Assembly (NCBI GenBank): GCA_944363885.1
Contig: CALVVO010000001.1
Span: 4,865 to 68,864 of the forward strand
Source of the DNA: an uncultured Bacilli bacterium
GTDB lineage: Bacteria > Bacillota_I > Bacilli_A > RF39 > UBA660
DNA: 64,000 nucleotides
Direction: 5' to 3'
Part shown: positions 1,919-63,792 of the stretch, piece by piece
How positions within the stretch are numbered: the first letter of the stretch is position 1
How the letters are laid out: every line of letters begins with the position of its first letter
Notes under the pieces: model-generated
Told to the model about the DNA's origin: nothing
The model's input: only the letters and a program-made list of their open reading frames with translations
The model's database searches: none
Translations under genes and position numbers: made by a program

Positions 1919-2158
1919 ATGTTAAACACCTTTGCAAATTACTTTAAAAACGAAAATTATTCATTACTAATAGCTAGTAATAAATTATACATAAATAATT
2001 ACAATAAAATAATAAATATCAAATCAAATGAAATAATAATAGATGTAAAAGATAAAAGATTATTTATATTTGGAAAAGATTTTATATTAAAAAAGATGGA
2101 TAAATTAGAGTTATACATAACTGGAAGTGTAACAAGGGTAGAAATAAATGAAAGATAA
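1919..2158 (+). CDS. YabP/YqfC-family sporulation protein
   Basis: 79 aa with an alternating hydrophobic beta pattern (LELYITGSVTRVEIN). It sits immediately before a YqfD homolog, as in the B. subtilis yqfC-yqfD pair. RBS AGGAGG. Confidence 0.45.
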   Translation: MLNTFANYFKNENYSLLIASNKLYINNYNKIINIKSNEIIIDVKDKRLFIFGKDFILKKMDKLELYITGSVTRVEINER

Positions 2159-13365: not shown

Positions 13366-14067
13366 GTGAAAAAAGTGTTAAAAAAAATTTTAGAATTTAT
13401 AAGAAATTTAAAAATATTTACAACATCATACTCAATAAATGTTTTCCCTGAACCTTTAACAAAAGAGGAAGAAGAAAAATACATTGAATTAATGATGAAA
13501 GGAGACAAAAACGCAAGAAGTGTGCTTATAGAGCATAATCTTAGATTAGTCGCACACATAGTAAAAAAATTTGAAAGTTTTAAAGAAGATACAGACGACC
13601 TAATAAGCATCGGAACAATTGGGCTAATAAAGGGAATAGATTCATATAAAGTAAATAAAGATGTGAGAATAACAACATATTCAGCTAGATGCATTGAAAA
13701 TGAGATTTTAATGTACATTAGAAGCAATAAAAAGAACCAAAATAATGTAAGTTTAGATGATTCGATTGGATTTGATAAAGAAGGAAACGAAATAACATTA
13801 TTAGATATACTAAAAGAAACAGATAATGAAGTCAATGATAAGTTATATGTAAAAGAAAATATAACATTATTAAAAAGTTACATAGATTGTCTAAGTGATA
13901 GAGAAAAAGAAGTAATAATTAATAGATATGGTTTACTAAATAGAGAAGAAAAAACACAAAAAGAAATTGCAAAAGAAATGAAAATATCTAGAAGTTATGT
14001 ATCAAGAATTGAAAAAAGGGCACTAGTAAAAATGCTAAGAGAATTTTTAAAAAATAACAACATGTAA
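13366..14067 (+). CDS. sigK: RNA polymerase sporulation sigma factor SigK (intact, with pro-sequence)
   Basis: 233 aa. Near-colinear with B. subtilis SigK (VFPEPLTKEEEEKYIELMMKGD...HNLRLVAHIVKKFE...TYSARCIENEILMYIR...ISRSYVSRIEKRAL). It has an N-terminal pro-sequence and no intervening element. GTG start at 13366 or 13375. Confidence 0.85.
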   Translation: MKKVLKKILEFIRNLKIFTTSYSINVFPEPLTKEEEEKYIELMMKGDKNARSVLIEHNLRLVAHIVKKFESFKEDTDDLISIGTIGLIKGIDSYKVNKDVRITTYSARCIENEILMYIRSNKKNQNNVSLDDSIGFDKEGNEITLLDILKETDNEVNDKLYVKENITLLKSYIDCLSDREKEVIINRYGLLNREEKTQKEIAKEMKISRSYVSRIEKRALVKMLREFLKNNNM

Positions 14068-20929: not shown

Positions 20930-21676
20930 GTGACTATGGAAAAAGATGATATTATAATTGAAACAGCAGAAAAATTTATTAATGCAAGTGAAATTGAAAA
21001 CAAAATACGAAAAAACAAAAATATAAGTATTTCAGAAATAGAACTTGATAAAAAGACAGCAGAAAAAATAGGAAAAAATAAAGGAAAATATATTACAATA
21101 TATTTTGAAAAAATAGAAAGTAATGTTGAAACAATATTAAAAGAATTAGAAGTAAATTTAAAAAACACTATCAAATATTTAAATATTAAAAAAAACAGTA
21201 AAATATTAGTCATAGGTTTAGGAAATAAAAACATTACTAGCGATTCTTTAGGATACTTAGTTATAGAAAAAATGGATATAGACAATAACATATATAAAAT
21301 ATACAAAGAAGTAGAAGGATTAAGTAATATAAATACATTTGAATTTGTAAAAATGCTATCAAAAAAACTTGAAGTAAATTTAATAATTATTATAGATTCA
21401 TTATCAGCAAAAAATATAGAAAGATTAAACAAAACTATTCAAATATCTACCGGCGGCATAAAACCCGGAAGTGCATTATTAAACACATCATATGAGATAA
21501 GTGAAAAAACAATGAAAATACCAGTAATAGCAATTGGAGTACCAACCATAATAAATATGAATAAATTTTTAAAAGAAAAACCAAAAGAAGAACTAATAGT
21601 TACAAGCAAAGATATAGATATAGAAATAGAAAATATAGCAACAATGTTAAGTATTGTAATAAATAGAATATTATGA
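20930..21676 (+). CDS. gpr: Spore germination protease GPR (compact form)
   Basis: 248 aa colinear with B. subtilis GPR core motifs (ILVIGLGNKNITSDSLG, IDSLSAKNIERLNKTIQISTGGIKPGS, IPVIAIGVPT). The rpsT-gpr-spoIIP order matches B. subtilis. The C-terminal approximately 120 aa seen in Bacillus GPR is absent. Confidence 0.75.
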   Translation: MTMEKDDIIIETAEKFINASEIENKIRKNKNISISEIELDKKTAEKIGKNKGKYITIYFEKIESNVETILKELEVNLKNTIKYLNIKKNSKILVIGLGNKNITSDSLGYLVIEKMDIDNNIYKIYKEVEGLSNINTFEFVKMLSKKLEVNLIIIIDSLSAKNIERLNKTIQISTGGIKPGSALLNTSYEISEKTMKIPVIAIGVPTIINMNKFLKEKPKEELIVTSKDIDIEIENIATMLSIVINRIL

Positions 21677-21734
21677 CATAAAACGAGTAATTTTTCATTC
21701 TCTTCTTATTATAATTCTAATAAAGGAGAGTGTT

Positions 21735-22706
21735 ATGAAAAAGTTTAAAAGTAAAAAGAAAAGTTTTAACGTTAAAATATTGTTTTACATATTTATATTT
21801 TTACTATCATTTAATGCTACTATAAAATTATGTTTAGGGCGAGATGGAGATAATAAAGAATTTTTGATAAGTATGTTACTAGGAGACATGTTAAAAAATG
21901 AAAATGTAATAGTTTCAAGTTTAAGTGCCAAATTGAGCGAACCAAAAGAAATGATATATAATTCATTAAACAAAATAGTAAATAAAGATAATCTAAGTGT
22001 ATTTTCAAATATAGAAGACGATGACTTTGATTATGAAAATGAAAAAACAAACTATATAGAAGACCCAAATCCAATAAACGTAGAAGAACCAATTGTTTAT
22101 ATTTATAACTCTCATCAAACAGAAGAATATTCTTCAAGTAATCCTTTGGATTATAGTGTAAAACCAAATGTAATGATTGCTTCATATGTAATGAAAGAAT
22201 ATATGAATGATAATGGCGTCCCAGCTATTGTAGAAACAGCTAACATAAAAGATTATTTAACTAGTAATGGTTTAAAATACAATAAAAGCTACGTTGCAAG
22301 CAAATATTATATAGAGCAAGCATTAAATAAATACAGTTCAATTAAATATCTTATAGATATACATAGAGATAGTGCGACAATTGATAAAACACTATACGAA
22401 CAAGACGGGAAAAGTTATGCAAGAATACTTTTTGTTGTTGGAATGGAACATGAAGGGTATGAAAGTAATTTAAATTTAGCGACAACATTAAATGAAAAAA
22501 TAAAAGAAAAATACCCTGGTATAAGCAGAGGAATCAGCAAAAAAAGTGGTAGCAACGTAAACGGAATATACAATCAAGATATGAGTGAAAACGCAATGTT
22601 AATCGAAATAGGTGGAGTAGATAACGAAATAGAACAAGTATATAATACAATAAATGCAATAAGCGAAATAATAGTTAACTACATAAAGGGACAAAACAAT
22701 GGATAA
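21735..22706 (+). CDS. spoIIP: Stage II sporulation protein P
   Basis: 323 aa with a signal anchor and an amidase-like SpoIIP domain (IYIYNSHQTEEY, IDIHRDS, ARILFVVG). It follows gpr. Confidence 0.8.
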   Translation: MKKFKSKKKSFNVKILFYIFIFLLSFNATIKLCLGRDGDNKEFLISMLLGDMLKNENVIVSSLSAKLSEPKEMIYNSLNKIVNKDNLSVFSNIEDDDFDYENEKTNYIEDPNPINVEEPIVYIYNSHQTEEYSSSNPLDYSVKPNVMIASYVMKEYMNDNGVPAIVETANIKDYLTSNGLKYNKSYVASKYYIEQALNKYSSIKYLIDIHRDSATIDKTLYEQDGKSYARILFVVGMEHEGYESNLNLATTLNEKIKEKYPGISRGISKKSGSNVNGIYNQDMSENAMLIEIGGVDNEIEQVYNTINAISEIIVNYIKGQNNG

Positions 22707-23503: not shown

Positions 23504-25423
23504 TTAACTATTTTTTAATTTCATAGAAAATTCATCATCATTAATTGGAATTTTTATAATATTTGATAAAGTAGACTCAACGTCATTTACATCAATTTCT
23601 AATAAATTTGCAATAGTTTCATTGGATAGTTTCTTGCCATTTAAAATCATACTTTTTAATAAAATAACCATTGTTTCAACTGTTGAAATAGATAGATTAT
23701 TTGCTAAAGAATCAATATAAGAAGCATTTATTAATTTTTTTATTTTTTTATAATCTTCAAGTGACAAAGTTAAATTTGGTTCACCTTCATAATAATTATT
23801 TTCAGGTTTTTCTTTGTTAGACTCATCAAGTTTTCGCTTGTTTTGTAATTTTTTTTTCATTTTAGGAATTAAAGAAAGATAGAAAATAGAGTGATTTTCT
23901 TTAGACCAAGATGGATCAGTACTAGGGTGTTCTAAATCATCGCCGTAACGCAATCTGATTAATTCCTTTTCATCGTCGTTAAGTTGAAAAAGCATATTAT
24001 CAATTTCTTCTTTTGAAAAATCACTAAAATATTCATATATACTTTTTAACTTTCTACCCTTATGAACAGGTTTAGCCGCATTTTTTAGTAATCTTTTCAT
24101 TTTAGGAATTAAAGAACGATAAAAAACAGAGTAATTTTTTCTAGACCAAGATGAGTCAGTAACAGGATGTTCTAAATCATTGCCATAATGCATTCTTACT
24201 AATTCTTTCTCATCTTCATTAAGTTGTGACAACATATTATCTATTTCTTCTTTTGAAAAATCACTAAAATATTCATAAATAGTTTTCAATTTTCTATTTT
24301 TATAAATAGGTTTAGTCATATTTTTTAGTAATCTTTTCATTTTAGGAACTAATATACCATAAAATGAATAAGCGTTTTCTTTAGACCAAGATGGATCAGT
24401 AACAAGATGTTCTAAATCATCACCGTAGCGCATTCTTACTAATTCTTTCTCATCTTCATTAAGTTGTGACAACATATTATCTATTTCATCTTTCGAAAAA
24501 TCACTAAAAAGTTCATAAATAGTTTTTAATTTTCTATTTTTATAAATAGGTTTAGTCGTATTTTTTAGTAATCTTTTCATTTTTGGAACTAAGAAACGAT
24601 AAAAGATATAGCTATTTTCTCTAGTCCAAGATGGATCAGTAACAGGATGTTCTAAATCATCGCCGTAGCGCATTCTTACTAATTCTTTCTCATTTTCATT
24701 AAGTTGTGATAACATATTGTCTATTTCTTCTTTTGAAAAATCACTAAAATATTCATAAATAGGTTTTAACCTTCTTTTATTTTGAAACTCATTATTTTCT
24801 AATTGTAATTTTATTGTTTTTAAAGTTGCTGTTATAATTCTAGAAACATACGATTGAGATATTTTCATTTGAGAACTAATTTCATTTTGATTAAGTGGTT
24901 CACAATTAAAACCAAAATACAGCATAATAATTTGCTTTTCACGTTCGGGCAAATTTTCAATTACTCTTCTCACTTCGTCATATAATTCTTTTTCTTCAAT
25001 AGAAAAAACAAAATCTTCATCAGAATCCATTAATATATCCTTTAAAAACAATTCACTACCATCTTTATTTGTAGAAATAGGAGAAGTTAAACTAACATGT
25101 TCTTTATGTGTTTTATTTTTTCGTATGAACAATAAAATCTCATTATCTATACATTTCATAGCATAGGTAGAAAACTTAACTTCTCTATTTATATCAAAAG
25201 TATCCACTGCTTTTATTAAACCCATTAATCCAATTGAAACCAACTCGTCCATATCGTATGGATAAGAAGAAAATTTACCAGGAACTCTATATAATACTAA
25301 TTTAATATTATGGTTTATAATAATTTCTCTAGATTTTAAATCGCCATTTTGAAATCTAATAAAATATTCTACAATCTCTTTATCATCAAGTGGCTTTGGC
25401 AAATTATTTTCAACAAACAACAT
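23504..25423 (-). CDS. Sporulation-type (SigE/SigK-clade) sigma-70 factor fused to four tandem region-4-like repeats and a C-terminal helical domain
   Basis: 639 aa. Residues 1 to approximately 212 form a complete sigma (LPKPLDDKEIVEYFIRFQNGD, NIKLVLYRV, STYAMKCIDNEILLFIRKNK, LPEREKQIIMLYFGF...ISQSYVSRI) with no pro-sequence. Residues approximately 213-535 are four 79-81 aa repeats (IYEYFSDFSKEEIDNMLSQLNEDEKELVRMRYGDDLEHPVTDPSW...IPKMKRLLKN), each resembling region 4.1 plus a degenerate helix. The final approximately 100 aa form another helical module. Confidence 0.65.
   Translation of the reverse strand: MLFVENNLPKPLDDKEIVEYFIRFQNGDLKSREIIINHNIKLVLYRVPGKFSSYPYDMDELVSIGLMGLIKAVDTFDINREVKFSTYAMKCIDNEILLFIRKNKTHKEHVSLTSPISTNKDGSELFLKDILMDSDEDFVFSIEEKELYDEVRRVIENLPEREKQIIMLYFGFNCEPLNQNEISSQMKISQSYVSRIITATLKTIKLQLENNEFQNKRRLKPIYEYFSDFSKEEIDNMLSQLNENEKELVRMRYGDDLEHPVTDPSWTRENSYIFYRFLVPKMKRLLKNTTKPIYKNRKLKTIYELFSDFSKDEIDNMLSQLNEDEKELVRMRYGDDLEHLVTDPSWSKENAYSFYGILVPKMKRLLKNMTKPIYKNRKLKTIYEYFSDFSKEEIDNMLSQLNEDEKELVRMHYGNDLEHPVTDSSWSRKNYSVFYRSLIPKMKRLLKNAAKPVHKGRKLKSIYEYFSDFSKEEIDNMLFQLNDDEKELIRLRYGDDLEHPSTDPSWSKENHSIFYLSLIPKMKKKLQNKRKLDESNKEKPENNYYEGEPNLTLSLEDYKKIKKLINASYIDSLANNLSISTVETMVILLKSMILNGKKLSNETIANLLEIDVNDVESTLSNIIKIPINDDEFSMKLKNS
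23822..24787. repeat. Four diverged tandem DNA repeats of about 240 bp (coding, inside the sigma-fusion gene)
   Basis: Recurring blocks, for example ...TCATCTTCATTAAGTTGTGACAACATATTATCTATTTCTTCTTTTGAAAAATCACTAAAATATTCATAAATAG..., with a period of about 237-241 bp. Copies are roughly 85-90% identical and in frame. Confidence 0.8.
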
Positions 25424-32533: not shown

Positions 32534-32881
32534 ATGGATAAAGTAAATTCAAATGACTATTTAAACAAGGACGTACTAGTGAAAATTGATAGAAAGCTTG
32601 GCTCAAAGCATCCGAAGCACGGATTTATTTACACGTTATAATTATGGTTATATTCCTAATACTATAAGCGGAGACGGTGAAGAATTAGATGCATACGTAT
32701 TAGGAGTATATGAACCATTGAAGAATTTGAAGGAAAAGTAATTGCTATTATTCATAGAACTAACGATGAAGATGATAAATTAGTCGTAGCACCAAAAAAT
32801 ATTAATTATTCTGATGACGCTATAAAAGCACTTACAGAATTTCAAGAAAGATTTTTTAACTCAATTATAATTAGAAAATAA
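32534..32881 (+). pseudogene. Inorganic-pyrophosphatase-like gene disrupted by two frameshifts
   Basis: Three consecutive frames read MDKVNSNDYLNKDVLVKIDRKLGSKHPKHGFIYTL* / YNYGYIPNTISGDGEELDAYVLGVYEPLKNLKEK* / EEFEGKVIAIIHRTNDEDDKLVVAPKNINYSDDAIKALTEFQERFFNSIIIRK*. Together these resemble a compact family-I PPase core (NYG[FY]IP.T...DG[DE].LD..VL). RBS AAGGAGA upstream. Confidence 0.45.
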
Positions 32882-32890
32882 AAAAGTAAG

Positions 32891-32924
32891 ACTAATACTC
32901 AAATTTCCAAAGTATTAGTTTTTT
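32891..32924 (+). terminator. Hairpin plus T-run element (copy 1)
   Basis: CTAATACT-caaatttccaa-AGTATTAG followed by TTTTTT. Confidence 0.5.
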
Positions 32925-33068: not shown

Positions 33069-33101
33069 TAATACTTAAATTTCCAAAGTATTAGTTTTTT
33101 T
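33069..33101 (+). terminator. Hairpin plus T-run element (copy 2, near-identical to copy 1)
   Basis: CTAATACT-taaatttccaa-AGTATTAG followed by TTTTTTT. It lies 177 bp downstream of copy 1 and 33 bp before the spoIVB start. Confidence 0.45.
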
Positions 33102-33133: not shown

Positions 33134-34108
33134 ATGAAAAAAATTATGATATCACTTCTATTAGCCATAATTATGCCATTAGAACTACTTGCTTATTCAG
33201 AATATATAATACCTGGTGGAGAAAACATCGGAATAACTATAAATTCTAAAGGCTTAACAGTAGTAGGTTTTTATAAAGTCGATGATAAATATATTGGAAA
33301 AGAAACACTTAAAGTAGGAGATATAATTACAAAAATAGAAGGGAGTGAAGTAACCACCATCGATGAAATGACTAAAACGATATCTTCAAACATCAAAGAT
33401 GAAAAAATAAACATAACAATAGAACGAAATGGTAAAACAATTGAAACATATTTAAACATTATAAAAGAAGATAATGTATTTAAAACTGGATTATACATTA
33501 AAGAAAAAATAAACGGAGTAGGGACACTTACATATATAGACCCAGTGACTAAAATCTATGGTGCTTTAGGGCATGAAATAACTATGAATGAGACAAATAA
33601 TATAGTAGAAGTAAGATCAGGTAACATTTATGAAAGTTATGTAAACAGTATAGATAGAAGCGCTAATGGAACAGTAGGAAGCAAAAACGCTACAATTGAT
33701 TTTAAAAGTACATTAGGAACTATTGTTGAAAACACAAAAAAAGGAATATTCGGTAGTTATGAAGTAAATATGCCTAATACTGAACCATTAAAGGTTGCAG
33801 ACTTTGATGAAATACAAATAGGAAAAGCATACACATATACAACAATAGATGGAGAAAACAAAGAAAAATATGAAATAGAAATTACAAAAAAAGAAGAAAA
33901 AAGTATAGATACCTCTAAAGCGATAAGTTTTAAAATCACTGATGAAAAATTACTAGAAGAGACTGGAGGAGTAGTACAAGGAATGAGCGGAAGCCCTATA
34001 ATACAAAATAATAAAATAATAGGCGCGGTAACTCACGTAGTAGTAGATGATGTAACAAAAGGTTATGCAATATTTATTAGAACAATGTTAGAAGAAGGCG
34101 AAAATTAG
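33134..34108 (+). CDS. spoIVB: Stage IV sporulation protein B (SpoIVB peptidase, S55)
   Basis: 324 aa with a signal peptide and PDZ domain (LKVGDIITKIEGSEV). Protease motifs GALGHEI and QGMSGSPII. It follows xseAB as in B. subtilis (...recN-spoIVB). Confidence 0.85.
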   Translation: MKKIMISLLLAIIMPLELLAYSEYIIPGGENIGITINSKGLTVVGFYKVDDKYIGKETLKVGDIITKIEGSEVTTIDEMTKTISSNIKDEKINITIERNGKTIETYLNIIKEDNVFKTGLYIKEKINGVGTLTYIDPVTKIYGALGHEITMNETNNIVEVRSGNIYESYVNSIDRSANGTVGSKNATIDFKSTLGTIVENTKKGIFGSYEVNMPNTEPLKVADFDEIQIGKAYTYTTIDGENKEKYEIEITKKEEKSIDTSKAISFKITDEKLLEETGGVVQGMSGSPIIQNNKIIGAVTHVVVDDVTKGYAIFIRTMLEEGEN

Positions 34109-35094: not shown

Positions 35095-35682
35095 ATGAAA
35101 AAAATAATTAATAAAAAATTTAATTTACCAGTAATTGTAACATTTTTAATTGGAATAGTTTTTGGAATAATATTTATATTTTTTATTAGTGAAGTGGACA
35201 AACTTATCATAAAATCAGAAATAGAAGAATATTTGAGTTTAGTAAGTAATTCTAGTAACACATTAAATTCCATATTAAATAGTTTTAAGAATAACTTACT
35301 ATATTTAACGATAATTTGGGTATCTTCTATAACAATTATATTTACACCAATAGTATTCTTTGTTATATTTTATAAAGGATTTTTAACAGGTTTTTTAATG
35401 AGTAGTTTTATAATGATATTTGGCATAAAAGGTTTTATATATAGTTTAATATTTACATTTCCACATGAAATAATAAACATAATAGTTTTTATACTTTTCT
35501 CAATAATAATGGTATCAATAAGTTACAAAATAATGAAATCTATATACAAGAACGACACAATAAACCTACGAATATTTTGCAAAAAAGTATTCATTTTATA
35601 TATTGCATTTATACTAGTCTTGCTAATTAGCAGCATATTAGAAATATATTTAAATCACTTTATATTAGGTATTTTTTTCTAA
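35095..35682 (+). CDS. spoIIM: Stage II sporulation protein M
   Basis: 195 aa. Multi-TM SpoIIM/DUF95-like architecture (N-terminal TM, soluble helix, four TMs, FPHEIINIIVF segment). Confidence 0.6.
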   Translation: MKKIINKKFNLPVIVTFLIGIVFGIIFIFFISEVDKLIIKSEIEEYLSLVSNSSNTLNSILNSFKNNLLYLTIIWVSSITIIFTPIVFFVIFYKGFLTGFLMSSFIMIFGIKGFIYSLIFTFPHEIINIIVFILFSIIMVSISYKIMKSIYKNDTINLRIFCKKVFILYIAFILVLLISSILEIYLNHFILGIFF

Positions 35683-38512: not shown

Positions 38513-41110
38513 TTAATCGTCATTAAATATTCTTACAATAAATGGTTTTAGTAGTTCTATTACTATAAATGAAACCAAATTAATAATTATAACGTATAAA
38601 AATTGAGCCCAAGTAATTGTAACTAAACCAAATAATTTACCTATCGGTGTAAAGAATACTAACATTTGCACAAACATTAAGCCTAGTATACCAATATTTA
38701 AATATTTATTCGAAAATATACCTTTTGTATATATCTGTTCTTTTAAACTTCTACAGTTGTATACAAATACAAACTCATTTATCACTACACTCAATAACGC
38801 TAATGTTTGAGCTACGCTAGAACCTAAATCTAGAAAATGGTAGTACACTATTAGGCTTATTCCAGCTTCAAGTATTACTGATATTATAAGAAAAGCAGTA
38901 AAATACTTTGTAAATATTTTTTTGTTTAAACCATTTGGTTTTCTATCCATTATATTTTTTGATGCACTTTCAAATGCTAACGTTATAGATGGTATAGTAT
39001 CAGCAATTAAGTCTATATAAAGAACATGTATTGCAGAAATAATTGTATTTCCTGTAAACATTCCGACTAATATAATTACTATTTCAGTAAAATTACTTGA
39101 CAAATTATAAAGAATGTTTGATATTACATTATCATAAATTCTTCTTCCCTCACTTACAGCAGTAGTTATAGTGCTGTAACTATCATCAAGTAAAATAATA
39201 TCAGAAACATCTTTTGTAACATCCGTTCCACTTTTTCCCATGCCTATTCCAACGTTTGCTAGTTTGATTGCTGGAGCATCATTTACACCGTCTCCTGTCA
39301 TTGCAACCACCCTACCTTCTCGTTGTAAAACTTTTACTATTTTTAATTTATGTTCTGGGCTAACTCTTGCAAATACTGAATATTTATTTATATATTCTTC
39401 TAACTCATCATCAGACAAATTATCTAACTGTGAAGCATTAATGCATTCCTGTTCACTATTACAGATTCCTACTTCTTTAGCAATACTAGTTGCTGTCGCT
39501 AAATTATCACCAGTTAACATGATTGGCCTAATATTGGCTTTCTTACACGTATTTATTGCTTCAACTATATTTTCCCTTACTGGATCTTTTAAACCTACTA
39601 AACCTAGTAAAATCAAATCATTTTCTTCTCTTACATAATTAGTTTCATTTTCAAGACTTTTATACGCAAAAGCGAGTACTTTTAATCCTTCCCTAGCCAT
39701 CTTTATTTCTGCATCTATATAGTAGTCTTTAATACTTTCACTAATTTTTACTATTTTGCCATCAACTAATACTTCTTTAGATTTTTTTAACAAAGATTCA
39801 AAACTACCTTTAGTATAAATATACTTTTTATCATTTATTTCACAAATTACACTCATCATCTTTCTATCTGAGTCAAAAGGCAATTCATGAATAACTTTAA
39901 AATCTATTTCATCAAGTTTATGTTCACTTAGAAAGTTTTTTATTGCTACATCTACAGAGTCACCATAATATTCATTTTTATCGTTTATATGCGCAGTATT
40001 ACATATATTCATAACTTCAATTAGTTGCTGTTCTTCAGTTAAATTTACTTTATCCTTTACTTTAGAATAACAATATAATTCAATCACTTCAAGTTTATTT
40101 TCAGTAATTGTTCCCGTTTTATCAGTACATATTATATTTGTTGCACCTAACGTTTCTATAGCAGCTAGATTTCTAACAATTGACTTTTTTTTAGCCATTT
40201 GACTTACACCAATTGATAAAGTAGCAGTTATAGCAATTGGTAAACATTCTGGAACACTTGCAACTATCATTGATATACATAACATTGCAATATTTAAAAC
40301 AGTATAATCATTTATAATTCCGTAAACCAAAACAAAACATACTAATATACTTGCAATAATTGTGATAAATTTGCTTATTTTTTCTACTTTAACTTGTAAA
40401 GGTGTTAAAGGTTCTTCATCTGTATCTATGACTTTAGCTATTTTACCTAGTTCGGTATTCATTCCAGTAGCAGTAACTATCGCTTCTAGTTTTCCTGAAA
40501 CTAAAATAGTTCCACTATAAACCATATTAGATCTTTCTGAAATTGAAACTTTTTTATTAATAATTATATTATTCTTTTCTACGTTTAAACTTTCACCAGT
40601 TAAAATAGACTCATCAACTTTTGCATAATAACTTTCAATTATTCTTGCATCAGCCGGTATTTTATCTCCTGATTCCAATAATATTATGTCACCTATCACT
40701 AAATTCTTAGCATCTATTTTCTTATATTTGTTATTTCTTTTAACGCTTACATAATTAGTAGTATACTTTTTTAATTTACCAATTGCATCTTCTGCTTTAG
40801 ATTCTTGCAAAAATCCCATAAAACAATTAATCATTGATGTGCCAAGTATAACAATAGGTTCTAAAAAATCACCATTCTCTAAAATAGCATATATAAGAGA
40901 CAAAAAGCCAACGACCAATAAAAGTATAATCATTATATTTTTAAACTGTTTTAAAAATAACTCAATCTTGGTTTTTTTATTTTGTTCAACTAATACATTT
41001 TTACCGTATTTTTTTAATAATTTTTTATGATTAGAAGGACTTAACCCCTTACTTGATGTGTTAAATTCTTTATATAGTTCTTCTATAGTTTTTTGATATA
41101 TTTCTTTCAT
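38513..41110 (-). CDS. P-type cation-transporting ATPase (Ca2+-type, P2)
   Basis: 865 aa with DKTGTIT phosphorylation site, TGDNLATA, MTGDGVNDAPAIK and ten TM helices. Confidence 0.85.
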   Translation of the reverse strand: MKEIYQKTIEELYKEFNTSSKGLSPSNHKKLLKKYGKNVLVEQNKKTKIELFLKQFKNIMIILLLVVGFLSLIYAILENGDFLEPIVILGTSMINCFMGFLQESKAEDAIGKLKKYTTNYVSVKRNNKYKKIDAKNLVIGDIILLESGDKIPADARIIESYYAKVDESILTGESLNVEKNNIIINKKVSISERSNMVYSGTILVSGKLEAIVTATGMNTELGKIAKVIDTDEEPLTPLQVKVEKISKFITIIASILVCFVLVYGIINDYTVLNIAMLCISMIVASVPECLPIAITATLSIGVSQMAKKKSIVRNLAAIETLGATNIICTDKTGTITENKLEVIELYCYSKVKDKVNLTEEQQLIEVMNICNTAHINDKNEYYGDSVDVAIKNFLSEHKLDEIDFKVIHELPFDSDRKMMSVICEINDKKYIYTKGSFESLLKKSKEVLVDGKIVKISESIKDYYIDAEIKMAREGLKVLAFAYKSLENETNYVREENDLILLGLVGLKDPVRENIVEAINTCKKANIRPIMLTGDNLATATSIAKEVGICNSEQECINASQLDNLSDDELEEYINKYSVFARVSPEHKLKIVKVLQREGRVVAMTGDGVNDAPAIKLANVGIGMGKSGTDVTKDVSDIILLDDSYSTITTAVSEGRRIYDNVISNILYNLSSNFTEIVIILVGMFTGNTIISAIHVLYIDLIADTIPSITLAFESASKNIMDRKPNGLNKKIFTKYFTAFLIISVILEAGISLIVYYHFLDLGSSVAQTLALLSVVINEFVFVYNCRSLKEQIYTKGIFSNKYLNIGILGLMFVQMLVFFTPIGKLFGLVTITWAQFLYVIIINLVSFIVIELLKPFIVRIFNDD

Positions 41111-41251
41111 AACAATACCTTTCTACTTAACAATTATACAATAATATATTAGTATTTACAAATGTAAACCAATTATTTCCAATGAATTAAATATTATTTA
41201 AGTATTAATAGTTTTTTAATGACAATAATAATAACAGGTGGTGATAAAATA

Positions 41252-41401
41252 ATGGCTAATAGTAGAAATACAAGTAGAAATAGTAGTAAAAACTCTAGTA
41301 GAAATACTAGCAAAAACTCTAGTAGAAATTCTAGTAGAAACAGTAGTCGTAACTCAAGCAGAAACTCTTCTAGAAATAGTAGTAGAAATTCATGCAAATA
41401 G
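41252..41401 (+). CDS. Putative 49-aa Ser/Arg/Asn-rich tandem-repeat micro-protein (SRNSS)n
   Basis: RBS AGGTGGTGA 7 nt before ATG 41252. Sequence MANSRNTSRNSSKNSSRNTSKNSSRNSSRNSSRNSSRNSSRNSSRNSCK*, encoded by about nine 15-bp tandem repeats. It is followed immediately by a strong terminator. Confidence 0.35.
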   Translation: MANSRNTSRNSSKNSSRNTSKNSSRNSSRNSSRNSSRNSSRNSSRNSCK

Positions 41402-41409
41402 TCATTATA

Positions 41410-41437
41410 AAAGAGACGATGTGAGTCTCTTTTTTTA
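41410..41437. terminator. Bidirectional Rho-independent terminator between the micro-ORF and deoB
   Basis: AAGAGAC-gatgtga-GTCTCTT is flanked by an A-run upstream and TTTTTTT downstream. The deoB stop codon (minus strand) lies at 41435-41437. Confidence 0.6.
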
Positions 41438-42592
41438 ATGCAATAACTCCAAAAAACTAGTTCCAGTCTTAAGTGTATCATCTATATCAAAGTTATCAAT
41501 TATTGTTGCGCCTATATCAGCAAAAGTATCTCTTGCATCAAGCTCTCCAGTTGATTTCATACTAGTACTATAAGCTATCATAGGGACATTTTCTCTAGTA
41601 TGATCAGTACCAGTATATGTAGGATCATTACCATGGTCAGCAGTAAAAATAACCAAATCTGTTGGTTTTAATCTATTTAAGAAAATAGGCAAATAATAAT
41701 TAAGTTCTTCTAATGCCCTTAAATAACCATCTCTATCCCTTCTATGACCATATAATGTATCAAAATCATTTAGATTTAAAAAACATAAACCTTTAAAATC
41801 ACTTTTTGCAACGTCAATTAATTTCATAAGCCCATCTATATTATTAGTTGTTTTTATTGAAGTAGTAATACTCTTATTAGCAAAAATATCACCTATTTTG
41901 CCTAAAGCTAAAACTTCTATTCGATTATTATATAATAAATCAAGGTAATTTTCTTTTGGAACAACCGTAAAATCTTTTCTTCTAGGAGTTCTCACAAATT
42001 CTCCAGGCTTGCCAATAAATGGTCTTGCTATTACCCTACCTATCTTATATTTATCAGTTAAGACAATTTCACTAATTTTTTTACAAATATTGTATAATTC
42101 CTGAACAGGAACAATAGACTCATGTGCTGCAACCTGAAGAACAGAATCAGCAGAAGTATAAATAATAATTGCTCCAGTTTTCATATGCATTTCACCTAAT
42201 TCTTCAATTATTTCCGTACCAGAAGCTACAACATTACCAATCACTTCTCTACCAACCGCGTGTTGCACTTCACTAATTAATTCCAAAGGAAAACCATCAG
42301 GATAAGTTTGAAAAGGCTTTTCTTCAATCAAACCCATCATCTCATAATGCCCGTTTAATGTATCTTTTGCCAAATTTTTAGGTTTCATAGTAGTCCTATA
42401 TCCAATCGTACGTTCTTTATTCACCCCTACTAAATTTAAAAAACCTAATTTTTCCAAAACATTTAAATTATAATTACCCTTTTCAATAATATGACCAAGA
42501 GTATTGGCTCCTTCATCACCATACTTTACAGCATCAGCAGTCGCTCCAACACCCAAGCTATCCAAAACTATTAAAAAAATCCTATCGTACAT
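41435..42592 (-). CDS. deoB: Phosphopentomutase
   Basis: 385 aa. N-terminus RIFLIVLDSLGVGATADA and the metal-dependent alkaline-phosphatase-like core. Confidence 0.9.
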   Translation of the reverse strand: MYDRIFLIVLDSLGVGATADAVKYGDEGANTLGHIIEKGNYNLNVLEKLGFLNLVGVNKERTIGYRTTMKPKNLAKDTLNGHYEMMGLIEEKPFQTYPDGFPLELISEVQHAVGREVIGNVVASGTEIIEELGEMHMKTGAIIIYTSADSVLQVAAHESIVPVQELYNICKKISEIVLTDKYKIGRVIARPFIGKPGEFVRTPRRKDFTVVPKENYLDLLYNNRIEVLALGKIGDIFANKSITTSIKTTNNIDGLMKLIDVAKSDFKGLCFLNLNDFDTLYGHRRDRDGYLRALEELNYYLPIFLNRLKPTDLVIFTADHGNDPTYTGTDHTRENVPMIAYSTSMKSTGELDARDTFADIGATIIDNFDIDDTLKTGTSFLELLH

Positions 42593-45442: not shown

Positions 45443-45690
45443 ACGTACTCCAAATCATAAAAAAGCCCAAAGATACGACTGCCGTTTAAATAAATCTCGC
45501 CGTAGACGAGGTGGTAAGCAACATAATGCCATTAGGATTCTTAGTAAACTAAGCATTCAACACAGCACATTAATTATGCTCCCAAGAAAATTAAATAGTC
45601 GGTTTATTTGTTACGACAATCATTATCTTCAGGTAATTTTATTATATCATATATTTATAAAAAATATACTTAAAGCGTAAAATCTTTACA

Positions 45691-51007: not shown

Positions 51008-52312
51008 ATGATTAAAAAGTTATTTAAAAACAAATTTTTTGCTTCAACATTTATTTTATTAACTGGAGGCTTTTTATCTAAATTTTTAGGATTTATTTTA
51101 AGAATAATTATTTCAAGATATCTAGGTACCGAAGGCTTAGGCTTATATAGTTTATTAATGCCTACTTTTTCATTATTTATTGTAATTGCAACGTTATCTT
51201 TCCCAATTGCGATTAGTAAATTAGTTGCAATACCGAAAAGAAGTAGCAAAAAAGTTATTTTTTCAATTATACCAGTATCATTATTATTTAACATTATAAC
51301 AATTATAGTCTTATTTATCATATCAAGACCACTTGCAACTATATTTTTAAAAGAAGAGCGACTTATTTATCCAATAATATGTATTGGTTTCACACTTCCT
51401 TTTATTGGGCTTTCAAGTATAATTAAAGGCTATTTTTGGGGTAAACAAAGAATGCTTCCATATATTTTATCAAATATAAGCGAGCAAATCTTAAGACTTG
51501 CAATTTTAATAATATGTATCCCAAAATGTATAAAAATAAGTGTTGAACTAACAATATCAGTAATAATATTAGTAAATATATTAAGTGAAAGCTTTTCAGT
51601 TATTGTAATGCTTCTTGGTCTTCCAAAAGGAGTAAAAATACAAAAAGAAGATATTAAACCAAACAAAAGAGACATAAAAGATGTATTAAATATAAGTGTT
51701 CCATCGACCTCAAGTAAAGTTGTAGGTAGTTTAGCACACTTTTTCGAACCAATTATTTTAACAAATGTTTTATTATATGTTGGATATTCAAAAAATTTTA
51801 TCTTAACCGAATATGGAATTATAAATGGTTATGTACTAGGTTTACTACTTATTCCACAGTTTTTTACTCAATCAATTTCTACAGCATTAATACCAGAACT
51901 ATCAAAGTATTTTTACATTGGAAATAAGAAAAAATGCATAACAAGAATTAAACAAATTGTTTCATTAAGCCTACTTATTGGATTAGTATCTACAATCATA
52001 ATATATCTTTTTCCAAACTATTTTTTAAATTTAATTTATAACACAAATTTAGGAGTAAATTACATAAAAGTATTAGCCCCATTCATGTTAATGTATTTTA
52101 TAGATATGCCATTATCAAATTCATTACAGGCACTAGATAAATCTAAAAAAAGTATGTATATAACAATAGGAAGTTCAGTTATTAAGCTTTTAATTATTTT
52201 TATCACGTCTTTCTTTAAAATCGGAATGTATTCACTTATCATATCAATTATAGTTAGTCTATTATTCAGTACATTATGTTATATAAAGACAATAAAAAAA
52301 GTTCTATATTAG
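51008..52312 (+). CDS. SpoVB/MurJ-family MOP-superfamily flippase
   Basis: 434 aa with 12+ TM helices. The N-terminus (GGFLSKFLGFILRIIISRYLGTEGLGLYSLLMPTFSLF...PIAISKLVA) closely parallels SpoVB/MurJ. Confidence 0.75.
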   Translation: MIKKLFKNKFFASTFILLTGGFLSKFLGFILRIIISRYLGTEGLGLYSLLMPTFSLFIVIATLSFPIAISKLVAIPKRSSKKVIFSIIPVSLLFNIITIIVLFIISRPLATIFLKEERLIYPIICIGFTLPFIGLSSIIKGYFWGKQRMLPYILSNISEQILRLAILIICIPKCIKISVELTISVIILVNILSESFSVIVMLLGLPKGVKIQKEDIKPNKRDIKDVLNISVPSTSSKVVGSLAHFFEPIILTNVLLYVGYSKNFILTEYGIINGYVLGLLLIPQFFTQSISTALIPELSKYFYIGNKKKCITRIKQIVSLSLLIGLVSTIIIYLFPNYFLNLIYNTNLGVNYIKVLAPFMLMYFIDMPLSNSLQALDKSKKSMYITIGSSVIKLLIIFITSFFKIGMYSLIISIIVSLLFSTLCYIKTIKKVLY

Positions 52313-52962
52313 AACCTTACCAAATCACTTTTTTTAATAATATATGCTTTTTGATTTTTATAAAATGCATAAAATATCTCATCAATAGATGTATTTTCTT
52401 TTCTAATCAATTCTTTAAGCCATTTTTCATCTTTTTTTAAATATCTTAAAGTATCATGTTGAATTATACCATCTAAAATTAAAGGAAACGGGTTCTCGCT
52501 TTTCATTCTTAAAAAATTATATTTAAATACACTCAAATTACCATTATTCTCAAGTATAGCATATTCAACATCATTTATACTTTTTATATCCTTACTACGA
52601 AGATGGACTAATAAATCATCAAGAGTATACCTTTGTTTTACCATTTCCTTAAAATTAATTTTACCTTGATTAATTATAAGTGCTGGCTTACCTTCCATTA
52701 TATTTCTAAACTTATTAAACTTTAAAGACATAAAAGCTGCAATCAATTCAAAAACAACTAAAATTATAATAGGAATAACAGTAAACCATAAACTTTCCTC
52801 TATTTCTTCTATACTTATAGCGACTAATTCAGCAATTAAAATACTTACAACCAAGTCTTGAATACTAAGTTGTCCCACTTCCCTTTTCCCCATTATTCTA
52901 AATATAATCAAAATAAATAAGTAAAAAAAGATAGTCCTATATATTACAATAAATAGTTCCAT
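52309..52962 (-). CDS. DUF421 (YetF/YdfS-like) membrane protein
   Basis: 217 aa from MELFIVIYRTIFFYLFILIIFRIMGKREVGQLSIQDLVV, the DUF421 signature. It overlaps the flippase gene end by 4 nt. Confidence 0.7.
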   Translation of the reverse strand: MELFIVIYRTIFFYLFILIIFRIMGKREVGQLSIQDLVVSILIAELVAISIEEIEESLWFTVIPIIILVVFELIAAFMSLKFNKFRNIMEGKPALIINQGKINFKEMVKQRYTLDDLLVHLRSKDIKSINDVEYAILENNGNLSVFKYNFLRMKSENPFPLILDGIIQHDTLRYLKKDEKWLKELIRKENTSIDEIFYAFYKNQKAYIIKKSDLVRF

Positions 52963-53043
52963 AAAATCACCTACAACTATTATGAGAATAATCATATTTT
53001 TTTAAACAATAAATACAATTAATATAGAAAGAAGGTTAAATAA

Positions 53044-53403
53044 ATGCCAAATTATAAATACATTTTAAAAGGTTTTTTATATTTTATTGTTTCTTTATTA
53101 ATAATACTTGTTTTAACTTCAACTCTTAATTATTTTAATATAATTGGATACAAAACAGTATATATAATATCATTTATAGTGCTTATCATCGCGTCACTTT
53201 TTAGCGGATATTATCTTGCAAAACATAGCGAGCAAAAAGGGTATTTAATAGGAGCATTAATAGGAATTATAAATACATTTTTTCTAATTATATTATCACT
53301 AATATTTTCTAAATTATCATTAATTAGTCTACTATATTATTTTATATTAATGCTTTCTAGCGTAACAGGAGGAATATTTGGAATAAATCATAAAAAAAGA
53401 TAA
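53044..53403 (+). CDS. Small 4-TM membrane protein (Clostridial TIGR04086-like)
   Basis: 119 aa and hydrophobic. GYLIGALIGIIN and GGIFGI segments. Confidence 0.45.
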   Translation: MPNYKYILKGFLYFIVSLLIILVLTSTLNYFNIIGYKTVYIISFIVLIIASLFSGYYLAKHSEQKGYLIGALIGIINTFFLIILSLIFSKLSLISLLYYFILMLSSVTGGIFGINHKKR

Positions 53404-59532: not shown

Positions 59533-61452
59533 TTATTGTCTAACATATTTATGTTGAACTAGATAGTCAATAATAAATTGCATTTTTTCTTCAGTTGAAG
59601 CACCTGGATTTGTAACTTGATAATATTCTTCATAAGCATCAGCTAATACTCCAGCCAAATCACTAGGTATTGCATAAAATTTCAAATAATAGTCAATATT
59701 TTTAACATTAGTCATAATTGTATCTAATTTACTATCCATACCATTTAATTTAGTAGTAATATTATCAATATTAGTATTTAATGTTCCTAATATATTATTA
59801 TTTTCTTCAACAGTAGTCTTAATTTCAGCAAGTGATGTAGTGAAATCTTGTGTTCTTTGATTTAAAACACTATATCTACCTCTTTCATCAGAAGCTAAAG
59901 TTGCTAAATTTGTACCAAGATCTTTGATATCTTGTCTTATTACATTTTGTCTACCAACGGCATTTGATTCATATGTTGCTAATGAAGATTTTACATCATT
60001 TATTCCATTTATAACGTCATTTGTATTTTTAGATAATGAAGTTATAGAGCTAGAAATATCAGAAAGTGATGATTCTATTCTTGAATTAACTATACTTAAA
60101 TTTCTAAATGAAACATTTACAGTTGATGTTAAATCATTTAATGAACCCTCAATTCTATTTGTTACTATACTCAAATTATTTAATGATGTCCTTGTTTGAT
60201 TAGCATGAGTAGTTAATGTATTTTTAATTCCATTTGTTACTGTACTCAAATTATTTAATGATGTCCTTGTTTGATTAGCATGAGTGGTCAATGTATTTTT
60301 AATTCCATTTGTTACTGTACTCAAATTATTTAATGATGTCTTTGTTTGACTAGCATGAGTAGTTAATGTATCTTTAATTCCATTTGTTACTGTACTCAAA
60401 TTATTTAATGATGTCTTTGTTTGATTAGCATGAGTAGTTAATGTATCTTTAATTCCATTTGTTACTATGCTTAAATTATTTAATGATGTTCTGTTTTCAA
60501 CTATAAATGAATTTAAAGAACTTTGAACATTGTCAATTTTATCACTTAAGAATAATGTATTATTTGCATTATCCTCTAATATTGTCTTTTCTGCATTATC
60601 AATATTATTATTTATTGAATTCATGCTATTAGTAATCATGTTACCTAAATGAGTTCTTGTGTTATTTAAGTCAGTGTGTATTGCATTTTGACTATTAGTA
60701 ATCATATTACCTAAGTCTGTACGCAATGCATTTTCACTATTAGTTATTACATTTGTTAAATGATTTCTTGTGTTACTTAAATCTGTATGTATTGCATTTT
60801 GACTATTTGTAATCATATTACCTAAGTCTGTACGCAATGCATTTTCACTATTAGTTATTACATTTGTTAAATAATCTCTTGTATTACTTAAATCTGTATG
60901 TATTGCATTCTGACTATTGGTAATCATATTACCTAAATGATTTCTTGTATTATCTAAGTCAGTATGTATTGCATTTTGACTATTAGTAATCATATTACCT
61001 AAATGAGTTCTTGTGTTATTTAAGTCAGTATGTATTGCATTCTGACTATTAGATAAAGCAGTTAATAATGCAGATCTTGTATTATTAATATTATTATCCA
61101 AATTAGTATAATTTGTATTTATTAGAACTGTTAAAGCATCTGTTTTTTCAGTAAGACTCTTATCTAATAAATAATATTTTGAACTAATATTAGAATTAAT
61201 ACTTGATTCTGAATCATTAATGTTTTCAATAATTTCATCTTTTGATTCAGTCACAGCTTCATTTAATTCAGTAGTTTGTTTATTATTATTTTCATCTAAG
61301 AATTCAATTTTATCAAGCACATTTGGAATTGAATTACCATTGATATCAAATAATTTTGCAAGAGACAAACCAAGTAAAGTAAATAAAGCAACTAAAATTA
61401 CAACAACTACTACAATTTGTAGTGTTTGATTTTTTTGTTTTTTATTTTTCAT
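59533..61452 (-). CDS. Membrane-anchored Asn/Thr-rich tandem-repeat protein
   Basis: 639 aa with an N-terminal TM anchor (IVVVVVILVALFTLLGLSL). It has about eight 22-aa repeats (ITNSQNAIHTDLxNTRxHLGNM) and then five 25-aa repeats (TSLNNLSTVTNGIKDTLTTHANQTK). The C-terminus is a unique approximately 140-aa domain. Confidence 0.55.
   Translation of the reverse strand: MKNKKQKNQTLQIVVVVVILVALFTLLGLSLAKLFDINGNSIPNVLDKIEFLDENNNKQTTELNEAVTESKDEIIENINDSESSINSNISSKYYLLDKSLTEKTDALTVLINTNYTNLDNNINNTRSALLTALSNSQNAIHTDLNNTRTHLGNMITNSQNAIHTDLDNTRNHLGNMITNSQNAIHTDLSNTRDYLTNVITNSENALRTDLGNMITNSQNAIHTDLSNTRNHLTNVITNSENALRTDLGNMITNSQNAIHTDLNNTRTHLGNMITNSMNSINNNIDNAEKTILEDNANNTLFLSDKIDNVQSSLNSFIVENRTSLNNLSIVTNGIKDTLTTHANQTKTSLNNLSTVTNGIKDTLTTHASQTKTSLNNLSTVTNGIKNTLTTHANQTRTSLNNLSTVTNGIKNTLTTHANQTRTSLNNLSIVTNRIEGSLNDLTSTVNVSFRNLSIVNSRIESSLSDISSSITSLSKNTNDVINGINDVKSSLATYESNAVGRQNVIRQDIKDLGTNLATLASDERGRYSVLNQRTQDFTTSLAEIKTTVEENNNILGTLNTNIDNITTKLNGMDSKLDTIMTNVKNIDYYLKFYAIPSDLAGVLADAYEEYYQVTNPGASTEEKMQFIIDYLVQHKYVRQ
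60100..61080. repeat. Two families of in-frame coding tandem repeats (approximately 66-bp and approximately 75-bp units)
   Basis: The 75-bp units recur near 60171, 60251, 60331 and 60411. The 66-bp units recur across approximately 60550-61080. Confidence 0.7.
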
Positions 61453-62633: not shown

Positions 62634-62880
62634 TCCAATTCCCCCTTTATCATTTGCTCAAGACAATACTATCTCAAGAAATAATGTCTTTTATTCTAGC
62701 ATATTTTTGCTTATTGTCAATCAAAATAATGCTTTTTGTATAGATAAAGGTGCAAAAAATTGTTTTTATAAATTAAAATGGTTCAATATATTATACGTTT
62801 TATGAATAATTTAATTACACAAGAGTAAATAATATAGATTTAAAAAATATAATTTGATAAAATAATTACAGGTGATTTGT

Positions 62881-63792
62881 ATGACTATCGTTTTTAAAGT
62901 AAGTGATAACGTCAAAGAAAAAATGATTGAGTATTACATGGACAAAAGGAAACCTAAAACACCGCCTTATGCTATATTTCAAGCAGTTGAAGCTGACACA
63001 GTAATTACACTTTATGAAAGTGGCAAAGCAATGTTTCAGGGAATAAGTGCTGATGTAGATGCTAATCTTTGGAAAGATATGGAAAAACACTTAAATAACA
63101 TTGATATAGATTTTAATGAAAAACAAAAAGAAAAAACAGACAAAACATATTATTACCTAAATGCAATAGGTAGTGACGAAGTTGGAACTGGTGATTATTT
63201 TTTACCGATTGTCGTATGTGCAACATATGTTAAAAAAACTGATATTGCTTTTTTAGAAAGACTTAAAATTCAAGATTCTAAAAAAATGACTGATGATAAA
63301 ATTAGAAGATGTGCGCCTATCATTATGAATAAAATCCCACACGAATATATAATTATGACTAATAAAGAATATAACGCGACACATACAAGTGATAACATGA
63401 ACAAAATAAAAGCAATTTTACATAATCAAGTATTATATAAAATGACAAATAAAGGTTTTTTGTACGATAAAGTTATAGTAGACCAATTTGCCTACCCTAG
63501 AAGTTATTACGGATATTTAAAAGACGTAAAAGATAAAGTAACGAATATTACATTTATTACAAAAGCAGAAGATAAAAACTTAAGTGTTGCCTGTGCGTCA
63601 GTTATAAGCAGATATGTTTTTTTAACTGAAATGGATAAACTAAATAAAAAATATAATATTACTTTTCCAAAAGGTGCTGGAATAAAAGTTGATGAAGTTG
63701 GAAAAGAACTTGTAAAAAAATATGGCAAAGACATACTTAATGAAATAAGTAAAGTTTCATTTAAAAATACAGAAAAGATTTTAAAAAGTTAG
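62881..63792 (+). CDS. rnhC: Ribonuclease HIII
   Basis: 304 aa from MTIVFKVSD. N-terminal TBP-like domain plus an RNase H fold (GSDEVGTGDYFLPIVV). The cvpA/rnhC neighbourhood matches B. subtilis. Confidence 0.85.
   Translation: MTIVFKVSDNVKEKMIEYYMDKRKPKTPPYAIFQAVEADTVITLYESGKAMFQGISADVDANLWKDMEKHLNNIDIDFNEKQKEKTDKTYYYLNAIGSDEVGTGDYFLPIVVCATYVKKTDIAFLERLKIQDSKKMTDDKIRRCAPIIMNKIPHEYIIMTNKEYNATHTSDNMNKIKAILHNQVLYKMTNKGFLYDKVIVDQFAYPRSYYGYLKDVKDKVTNITFITKAEDKNLSVACASVISRYVFLTEMDKLNKKYNITFPKGAGIKVDEVGKELVKKYGKDILNEISKVSFKNTEKILKS

Follow-up and report, generated by a model that had tools for sequence, protein, structure and literature searches.

A short, strongly basic repeat protein conserved among RF39-like gut Bacilli and its possible role in the forespore

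A 64,000-nucleotide stretch of DNA from an uncultured member of the Bacilli (RF39; UBA660; assembly GCA_944363885.1, contig CALVVO010000001.1, positions 4,865-68,864 of the forward strand), referred to here as the window, has a G+C content of 26% and contains a micro-open reading frame (micro-ORF) at 41252..41401 that encodes a 49-residue protein made up largely of Asn, Ser and Arg. The sequence evidence indicates that the micro-ORF is a real, monocistronic protein-coding gene and that it is a member of a family, unannotated until now, of uncultured gut Bacilli of the RF39-like group. The product is probably a lineage-specific forespore protein that resembles the small, acid-soluble proteins of spores (SASPs), in which case it would most likely be a polycation that coats nucleic acid and possibly also a reserve. 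A connection of the micro-ORF with sporulation is plausible. The locus had been noticed in a first-pass annotation of the same DNA, and that account was partly confirmed; the repeat period that it gave was wrong.

The micro-ORF, its repeat array and its family

The locus comprises the following elements.

41252..41401 (+): coding sequence, with ATG at 41252, 49 codons and a TAG stop at 41399-41401
41236-41245 (+): Shine-Dalgarno sequence AGGTGGTGAT, 6 nt ahead of the ATG at 41252
41260..41389 (+): degenerate tandem array encoding S-S/T-R/K-N units, with a period of 12 nt, 10.8 copies and 68% matches (Tandem Repeats Finder)
41409..41436 (no strand assigned): bidirectional intrinsic terminator, AAAAGAGAC-GATGTGA-GTCTCTTTT plus a run of T, common to the micro-ORF and deoB
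41435..42592 (-): deoB (the name used in the first-pass annotation), phosphopentomutase of the metalloenzyme superfamily, 385 aa, convergent with the micro-ORF

The strong ribosome-binding site (RBS), the ATG at 41252 and the 49-residue frame, all described in the first-pass annotation, were borne out by the sequence and by the reading of its ORFs. The Shine-Dalgarno sequence occurs ahead of a start codon only once in the 64-kb window. A 60-residue version beginning at an in-frame ATG at 41219 was considered and rejected; that ATG lacks an RBS of its own and is seen in the closest relatives only, and 41252 was therefore taken as the start. The product, MANSRNTSRNSSKNSSRNTSKNSSRNSSRNSSRNSSRNSSRNSSRNSCK, has an isoelectric point of about 12, with 12 basic and no acidic residues among its 49 and a net charge of about +12. 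Asn, Ser and Arg account for 72% of the residues, a share that rises to 92% when Ala, Lys and Thr are added, and there are 1.86 nitrogen atoms per residue. Its tryptic peptides all consist of four residues, so that standard trypsin proteomics could not see the product. The 49-residue chain is predicted to be intrinsically disordered: AlphaFold2, run on the single sequence, gave a mean predicted local distance difference test (pLDDT) score of 61 and no secondary structure, a result that fits disorder and is otherwise uninformative.

The strand of the micro-ORF carries no gene downstream of it, the next gene being the convergent deoB, and the neighbors of the micro-ORF are genes for a P-type ATPase and a ZIP transporter, deoB, xerD and rarA. 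The hairpin that follows the stop codon has a 9-bp stem (41409-41417 paired with 41425-41433) and a folding energy of -13.7 kcal/mol (z = -3.85 relative to shuffled sequences). It overlaps the deoB stop codon (41435-41437) and so could serve both convergent genes. An automated terminator scan missed it, probably through A/T extension that consumed the T tail, and folding confirmed the hairpin. The median folding energy of 50 distinct downstream regions of the family was -13.8 kcal/mol, compared with -4.8 kcal/mol for shuffled sequences, and a strong hairpin flanked by A/T was present in all of the 45 family structures inspected except that of L014, the stem sequences varying by subfamily. The bidirectional terminator reported earlier was confirmed.

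The remaining frames of the array are, like the coding frame, free of stop codons because of the codon set used, and none has a conserved start. They include a Leu-rich antisense ORF of 95 aa (41194..41481), which begins within deoB on the deoB strand and spans the terminator; it was rejected as a gene, in agreement with the initial opinion that it was an artefact.

Tandem Repeats Finder gave periods of 12 nt and its multiples 24, 36 and 48 over 41260-41389, with 68-77% matches. The peptide consists of 11 four-residue units of the form S-S/T-R/K-N (SRNT, SRNS, SKNS and so on), so the 15-bp unit encoding a five-residue SRNSS repeated about eight times, as first described, must be replaced by a unit of 12 nt, or 4 aa, repeated 11 times. 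The units are 72% identical as DNA compared with 84% as peptide, and the Ser codons are a mixture of AGT/AGC (AGY) and TCT/TCA (TCN). Between the window and a relative designated L005, the deoB proteins of which are 97% identical, 28 of the 150 nt differ, with 14 synonymous codon changes versus 6 non-synonymous, mostly conservative ones. Another relative, L006, is shorter by exactly one 12-nt unit and retains both the C-terminal NSCK and the terminator. The type of repeat depends on the lineage, being a 4-mer, a 6-mer (SRSNNS x 8 in L030) or irregular, while the composition stays; the frame, start, RBS, stop and terminator are kept where the repeat is irregular or of another period. Within species-level groups the length is invariant over many metagenomes, at 39, 41, 43 or 49 aa. 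Six loci, from five independent samples of metagenomes or metagenome-assembled genomes (MAGs), are identical at this gene, and the window's DNA at the locus is found base for base on contigs of four other metagenome samples. The exact 49-residue product had already been called as a gene by the Joint Genome Institute (JGI) on contig Ga0245193_100217.

These observations bear on the suggestion that the array is a repeat-length-variable contingency locus, one of the options raised initially, or a non-coding microsatellite with an incidental open frame. The array of 10.8 units, the shorter relative and the absence of stops from the other frames would suit such a locus. The suggestion is nevertheless largely refuted, and is very improbable, in view of the degeneracy of the units, the two families of Ser codons, a unit length that is a multiple of three and the conservation of the expression signals across lineages whose repeats are irregular or of a different period. 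The frame-breaking length variation among relatives that had been linked to a non-coding microsatellite was not seen; length is constant within the species-level groups, so the array is apparently neither a contingency locus nor a microsatellite.

The family comprises 46 distinct proteins at about 70 independent loci. A scan of 80 deoB loci from different species identified 42, the window's species included, that carry a family ORF; these 42 represent 33 distinct proteins, with ORFs of 35-57 aa rich in Ser, Arg, Asn, Ala and Lys that are usually convergent and placed just after deoB. The signature of the ORFs is (A)AGGTGGTGAT followed, after 4-6 nt, by ATG or occasionally GTG or TTG. The AGGTGGTGAT element is invariant in 40 of the 42 deoB-linked loci, L033 and L046 having AAGGAGGT in its place. 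When 241 million metagenome records were searched with the 21-mer ATAATAATAACAGGTGGTGAT, which contains AGGTGGTGAT, 29 stretches matched; a family ORF follows directly in 27, and the other two are one and the same unrelated coding sequence. Some subfamilies lie away from deoB, between a ZIP transporter gene and the gene for a 454-aa protein of no assigned family, and the linkage to deoB was therefore considered to reflect synteny rather than function. The deoB relatives, UMGS1513 among them, are uncultured gut MAGs of Bacilli or 'Tenericutes'; the closest have 88-99% identity, and Clostridium sp. CAG:628 and Mycoplasma sp. CAG:611 are among the more distant. This points to the RF39-like group.

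The composition of the 46 proteins is tightly restricted. Net charge is +8 to +13, or about 0.27 per residue; Pro, Phe, Trp, Tyr, Ile and Leu are absent throughout, His occurs once in total, and in 39 proteins Met1 is followed by no hydrophobic residue at all. The N-terminus is MAN or MTN in 36 proteins, and 35 contain at least one Cys, often near the C-terminus. The commonest gap between basic residues is 4, which accounts for 249 of 503 gaps.

Searches of Pfam at E <= 1 and of NCBIfam with the 49- and 60-aa versions returned no real family match. A phmmer search of the peptide against a collection of 5.8 billion protein clusters, with about 15 billion proteins, gave nothing at E <= 0.01, and none of 10 family members for which an exact match was sought is in that collection. 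A further phmmer search of 1.84 billion cluster representatives gave nine matches, all to long proteins (142-806 aa), with no small relative among them; the five that were inspected are repeat proteins of an unrelated kind, so the matches were regarded as compositional. Rfam at the gathering threshold, applied over the window, gave nothing at the micro-ORF locus. The family is an example of a conserved gene overlooked by gene catalogues, having no Pfam or NCBIfam model and, for the ten members tried, no entry in the large protein collection.

Conserved upstream elements

The upstream sequences were analyzed by an alignment of 33 regions and by an information-content profile of 51 distinct regions anchored on the RBS. 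Three blocks upstream of the RBS are conserved, CCAAATATTGCCA at -67..-55, (T)GAATTA at about -36..-30 and CCATAATAATAAC at -13..-1. The second and third make up GAATT-N17-CATAATA, the only conserved promoter-like element in the family. The corresponding features of the window are listed below.

41169..41181 (+): CCAATTATTTCCA, the window's form of the conserved block CCAAATATTGCCA, 55-67 nt ahead of the RBS
41202..41207 (+): predicted forespore-type (sigF/sigG) -35 box GTATTA; family consensus (T)GAATTA, of which the G and ATT are conserved
41221..41230 (+): predicted -10 box GACAATAATA, separated from the 6-mer -35 box by 13 nt; family consensus gaCCATAATA
about 41235-41238 (+): predicted transcription start, which implies a leader of about 16 nt

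The mapped sigG promoter of Clostridioides difficile sspA, TACCT GAATT AAAAATGTTTAAAATCA CATAATA TTATCA (PMC7438776 Table S5), has a TGAATT-N17-CATAATA architecture equal to the family consensus. The likeness is confined to the promoter; the proteins are unrelated, the α/β SASPs (PF00269) being folded helix proteins that bind DNA.

A regular expression that described the forespore consensus loosely gave about 38 matches in the window and was too permissive at this G+C content, so it was replaced by trained matrices and control distributions. Two-block matrices were trained on mapped C. difficile promoters, 51 forespore (sigF and/or sigG), 32 sigE and 25 sigK (PMC7438776 Tables S5 and S6), and were used to score the 130 nt upstream of each of 33 family members in comparison with 600 control regions taken from upstream of other genes at these loci. 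The scores, in bits, were as follows.

Forespore model: family median 13.1; control median 7.0; control 95th and 99th percentiles 11.5 and 13.8; training median 14.2
sigE model: family median 6.7; control median 6.2; control 95th and 99th percentiles 11.4 and 13.8; training median 14.7
sigK model: family median 5.2; control median 5.9; control 95th and 99th percentiles 11.0 and 12.9; training median 14.7

The family promoter thus scores as the forespore (sigF/sigG) type and is predicted as such. With the forespore model 64% of the members exceeded the 95th percentile of the controls, a level reached by 1 of the 33 with the sigK model and by none with the sigE model. The position of the best forespore site is nearly constant in 28 of the 33, the -10 element ending 18-25 nt before the ATG (18-21 nt in 26). 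The window's own site scores 14.8 bits, above the 99th percentile of the controls, and the region upstream of gpr in the same genome, known as a forespore gene from model organisms, reaches 13.1 bits. With a sigA consensus the family median was 9.0 compared with 9.5 for controls, and the sites were at inconsistent positions. The case for a forespore promoter rests mainly on two points: GAATT-N17-CATAATA is conserved at a fixed position throughout the family, and there is no alternative promoter.

A sigA promoter with TTNCCA as its -35 element was tried and rejected; any -10-like box lies about 22 nt away from it, and the scores are at the control level.

Two further observations concern the upstream region. 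The block CCAAATATTGCCA persists even in loci such as L021, L022 and L045, in which it shares sequence with the first codons of the divergent ZIP gene, and its reverse complement, GGAAATAATT, resembles an oppositely directed forespore -10 box (site 41199-41171, 14.0 bits). The 24-mer AAATTTCCAAAGTATTAGTTTTTT, which occurs twice between genes upstream of spoIVB (32901-32924 and 33077-33100), shares TTTCCA and AGTATTA motifs with the region upstream of the micro-ORF.

SASP-like and competing readings

The window holds a set of sporulation genes, in which sigK lies above the NCBIfam cut-off.

1919-3314, 13366-14067, 20937-22706, 33134-34108, 35095-35682, 51008-52312 and 52309-53403: sporulation set (yqfC/yqfD, sigK, gpr-spoIIP, spoIVB, spoIIM, spoVB, a YetF-family gene and DUF3792)
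20937-21676: GPR endopeptidase, short, about 246 aa

The gpr-spoIIP pair adjoins rpsT, as in Bacillus. A genomic survey predicted that RF39 is able to form spores (PMC10868615). Together with the gene set in the window, this prediction makes the assumption of the first-pass annotation, that the organism is a spore former, a reasonable one.

Genes of the ssp type are monocistronic with a strong RBS, and their products begin MAN.., MAS.. and similar. The family has a number of ssp-like features: 1) the gene is monocistronic, 2) the RBS is very strong, 3) there is a terminator of its own, 4) the promoter is predicted to be of the forespore type, 5) the product is hydrophilic and 35-57 aa in length and 6) it starts with M-A/T-N. 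Since these hallmarks are combined with no match to a known SASP family and no GPR motif, the micro-ORF was read as encoding a lineage-specific, SASP-like forespore protein, an assignment favored with moderate confidence.

SASP genes are sigG-dependent, and the minor SASPs are 34-50 aa in length and confined to narrow lineages; in Bacillus subtilis the minor SASPs and Tlp span 34-83 aa (PMC3533761), and the small size, hydrophilicity and gene layout of the family conform. The minor SASPs SspK, L, M, N, O and P of Bacillus (34-50 aa, PMC3533761) resemble the family in size, in being hydrophilic without a hydrophobic core, in their restriction to lineages, in the gene layout, in the sigG-like promoter (predicted for the family) and in the N-terminus. 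The family differs in having no sequence similarity to them, a far more extreme composition, a tandem-repeat build and a net charge of about +12, and its location in the spore is a prediction. Small lineage-specific forespore proteins are thus already known as a kind, and what is new in the family is the extreme composition, the construction from repeats and the strong basicity.

The γ-type SASP of Bacillus, SspE, begins MANSNN. Like the family it is of low complexity, internally repeated, rich in Asn/Gln and expressed in the forespore (again a prediction for the family), and its known role, an amino acid reserve for germination, is one of those proposed here. However, SspE is about 84 aa in length, is not strongly basic and has GPR cleavage sites, while the family has neither the motif nor a SASP_gamma match. 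Protamines and the RS domains of eukaryotes are also short, disordered, Arg/Ser-rich polycations that bind nucleic acids. The resemblance of the family to them is compositional only, and the basic residues of protamines are clustered, whereas in the family the density of Arg is lower, with one basic residue per four.

If the protein is SASP-like, the gene would be transcribed in the forespore by RNA polymerase containing sigF or sigG, as the conserved GAATT-N17-CATAATA suggests, and the protein would appear late in sporulation, be kept in the spore core and be consumed or eliminated on germination. A polycation in which basic residues are most often four positions apart would most likely coat nucleic acid, either DNA or rRNA. 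Alternatively or in addition, it may be a nitrogen-rich, readily catabolized reserve of Ser, Arg and Asn, as the γ-type SASP is in Bacillus. The coating and reserve roles, both read solely from composition, are the most speculative step. A bolder version, which seems unlikely as a whole, is that the chromosome or the ribosomes of RF39-like spores are packaged or protected by a protamine-like, repeat-built polycation of Ser, Arg and Asn, as a second solution beside the α/β SASPs and unrelated to them in sequence, and that the same peptide doubles at germination as a fermentable, nitrogen-rich reserve for an auxotrophic organism with a reduced genome. Selection on composition and charge spacing, and not on sequence, would explain why the repeat unit was reinvented in each lineage.

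RF39 is a widespread, uncultured order of gut bacteria with reduced genomes, and sporulation there is only a genomic prediction (PMC10868615). Should the SASP-like assignment be correct, a conserved, strongly translated micro-gene with a forespore promoter would be independent evidence of a working forespore program in RF39, and a new, compositionally extreme family would join the small spore proteins, a lineage-specific and poorly understood group.

Several points weigh against the SASP-like assignment. Neither Pfam nor NCBIfam gave a match to the SASP families (PF00269, SASP_gamma, SspH, I, K, N, O, P and Tlp), and the GPR cleavage motif E-[FI]-[AG]-S-E is present in none of the 46 family members. 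The matrices came from a distant species, C. difficile, and were applied to a genome of 26% G+C; sites of at least 12.5 bits arise by chance, 31 of them in 128 kb, mostly inside genes, and spoIVB in the same window scores only 9.1 bits on the forespore model. The -10 box of the window has A where the family has C at the first position of CATAATA, and the conserved block at 41169-41181 is unexplained by the promoter reading. Apart from these points, a tblastn search of the DNA of the window and its relatives with SspA, SspF-like and SpoVT queries, aimed at further forespore promoters of the lineage, gave no matches, and no α/β SASP gene was found in those sequences.

The best surviving alternative, although an unlikely one, is that the product is a vegetative or constitutive small polycation unrelated to sporulation, such as a protein that associates with the nucleoid or the ribosome, or an RNA chaperone in an organism with a reduced genome. 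The extreme basicity, the predicted disorder and the very strong RBS fit an abundant nucleic acid-binding protein, and the CATAAT of the -10 box matches the sigA hexamer TATAAT at five of six positions. However, no conserved pair of sigA-type -35 and -10 elements was found, and the G-A-T-T box that is conserved 17 nt ahead of CATAATA suits forespore promoters, not TTGACA.

The first-pass annotation also raised the possibility of a CotG-like coat or scaffold protein, which would be a mother-cell product and the substrate of a CotH-type kinase. B. subtilis CotG is likewise a Ser/Arg/Lys-rich tandem-repeat protein of a spore former, and the present organism has sporulation genes. CotG is about 195 aa in length, with 13-residue Lys/Ser/Arg/Tyr/His repeats; it is a mother-cell (sigK) product encoded beside cotH and is about four times longer than the family proteins, and the family shares none of these characteristics. 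The sigK and sigE models gave background scores, no CotH domain occurs among the neighbors and no cotH-type kinase gene is adjacent and divergent, the units have four residues in a product of 49 aa, and the family has no Tyr and a single His. The idea was not sustained, given the size, the repeat type, the neighborhood and the lack of a mother-cell promoter, and is improbable.

A leader or attenuator peptide, or the precursor of a bacteriocin or of a ribosomally synthesized modified peptide, could be imagined from the small size and the frequent Cys, often close to the C-terminus, but it is scarcely credible for a gene with its own RBS, a terminator directly after the stop and no downstream gene on the same strand, which is as stand-alone as first described, with no modification, transport or immunity genes nearby in the contexts examined and no hydrophobic or signal segment whatever.

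Other features of the window

The gene divergent from the micro-ORF has a promoter-like site of its own.

38513..41110 (-): divergent P-type cation ATPase gene
41178-41150 (-): forespore-type promoter-like site, AAATAA-13-GTAAATACTA, 14.5 bits, 39 nt upstream of the ATPase gene

A sporulation-expressed Ca2+ ATPase would have precedents. The putative calcium-transporting ATPase CD2833 of C. difficile is given as sigE-dependent (PMC7438776 Table S6). Another forespore-type promoter-like site at 62804-62834 (+), GAATAA-15-GTAAATAATA (14.8 bits), lies upstream of the gene for RNase HIII (62872..63792) and could be a chance occurrence.

Between xseB and spoIVB, at 32534-32880 (+), there is a frame that resembles a family I inorganic pyrophosphatase (...NYGYIPNTISGDGEELDAYVLG...), as read from the translation only; it is broken by two frameshifts and so is probably a pseudogene. 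Two ORFs of 639 aa are also present on the reverse strand. In one, at 23504-25423 (-), residues 44-205 hold sigma-70 regions 2 and 4, and the chain continues beyond them for about 430 aa without a clear domain, which makes it an unusually long sigma-factor fusion. The other, at 59533-61452 (-), contains long tandem repeats, in frame, of 75 nt x 4.6 (94%) and 111 nt x 2.6 (93%), at 60151-60496 and 60646-61085, and has a weak apolipoprotein-like (helical repeat) Pfam match below the cut-off. The sole Rfam match in the window is a 6S RNA (RF00013) at 45460-45638 (-), between a ThiF-family gene and tilS, with a score of 47.4 bits, just above the gathering score.

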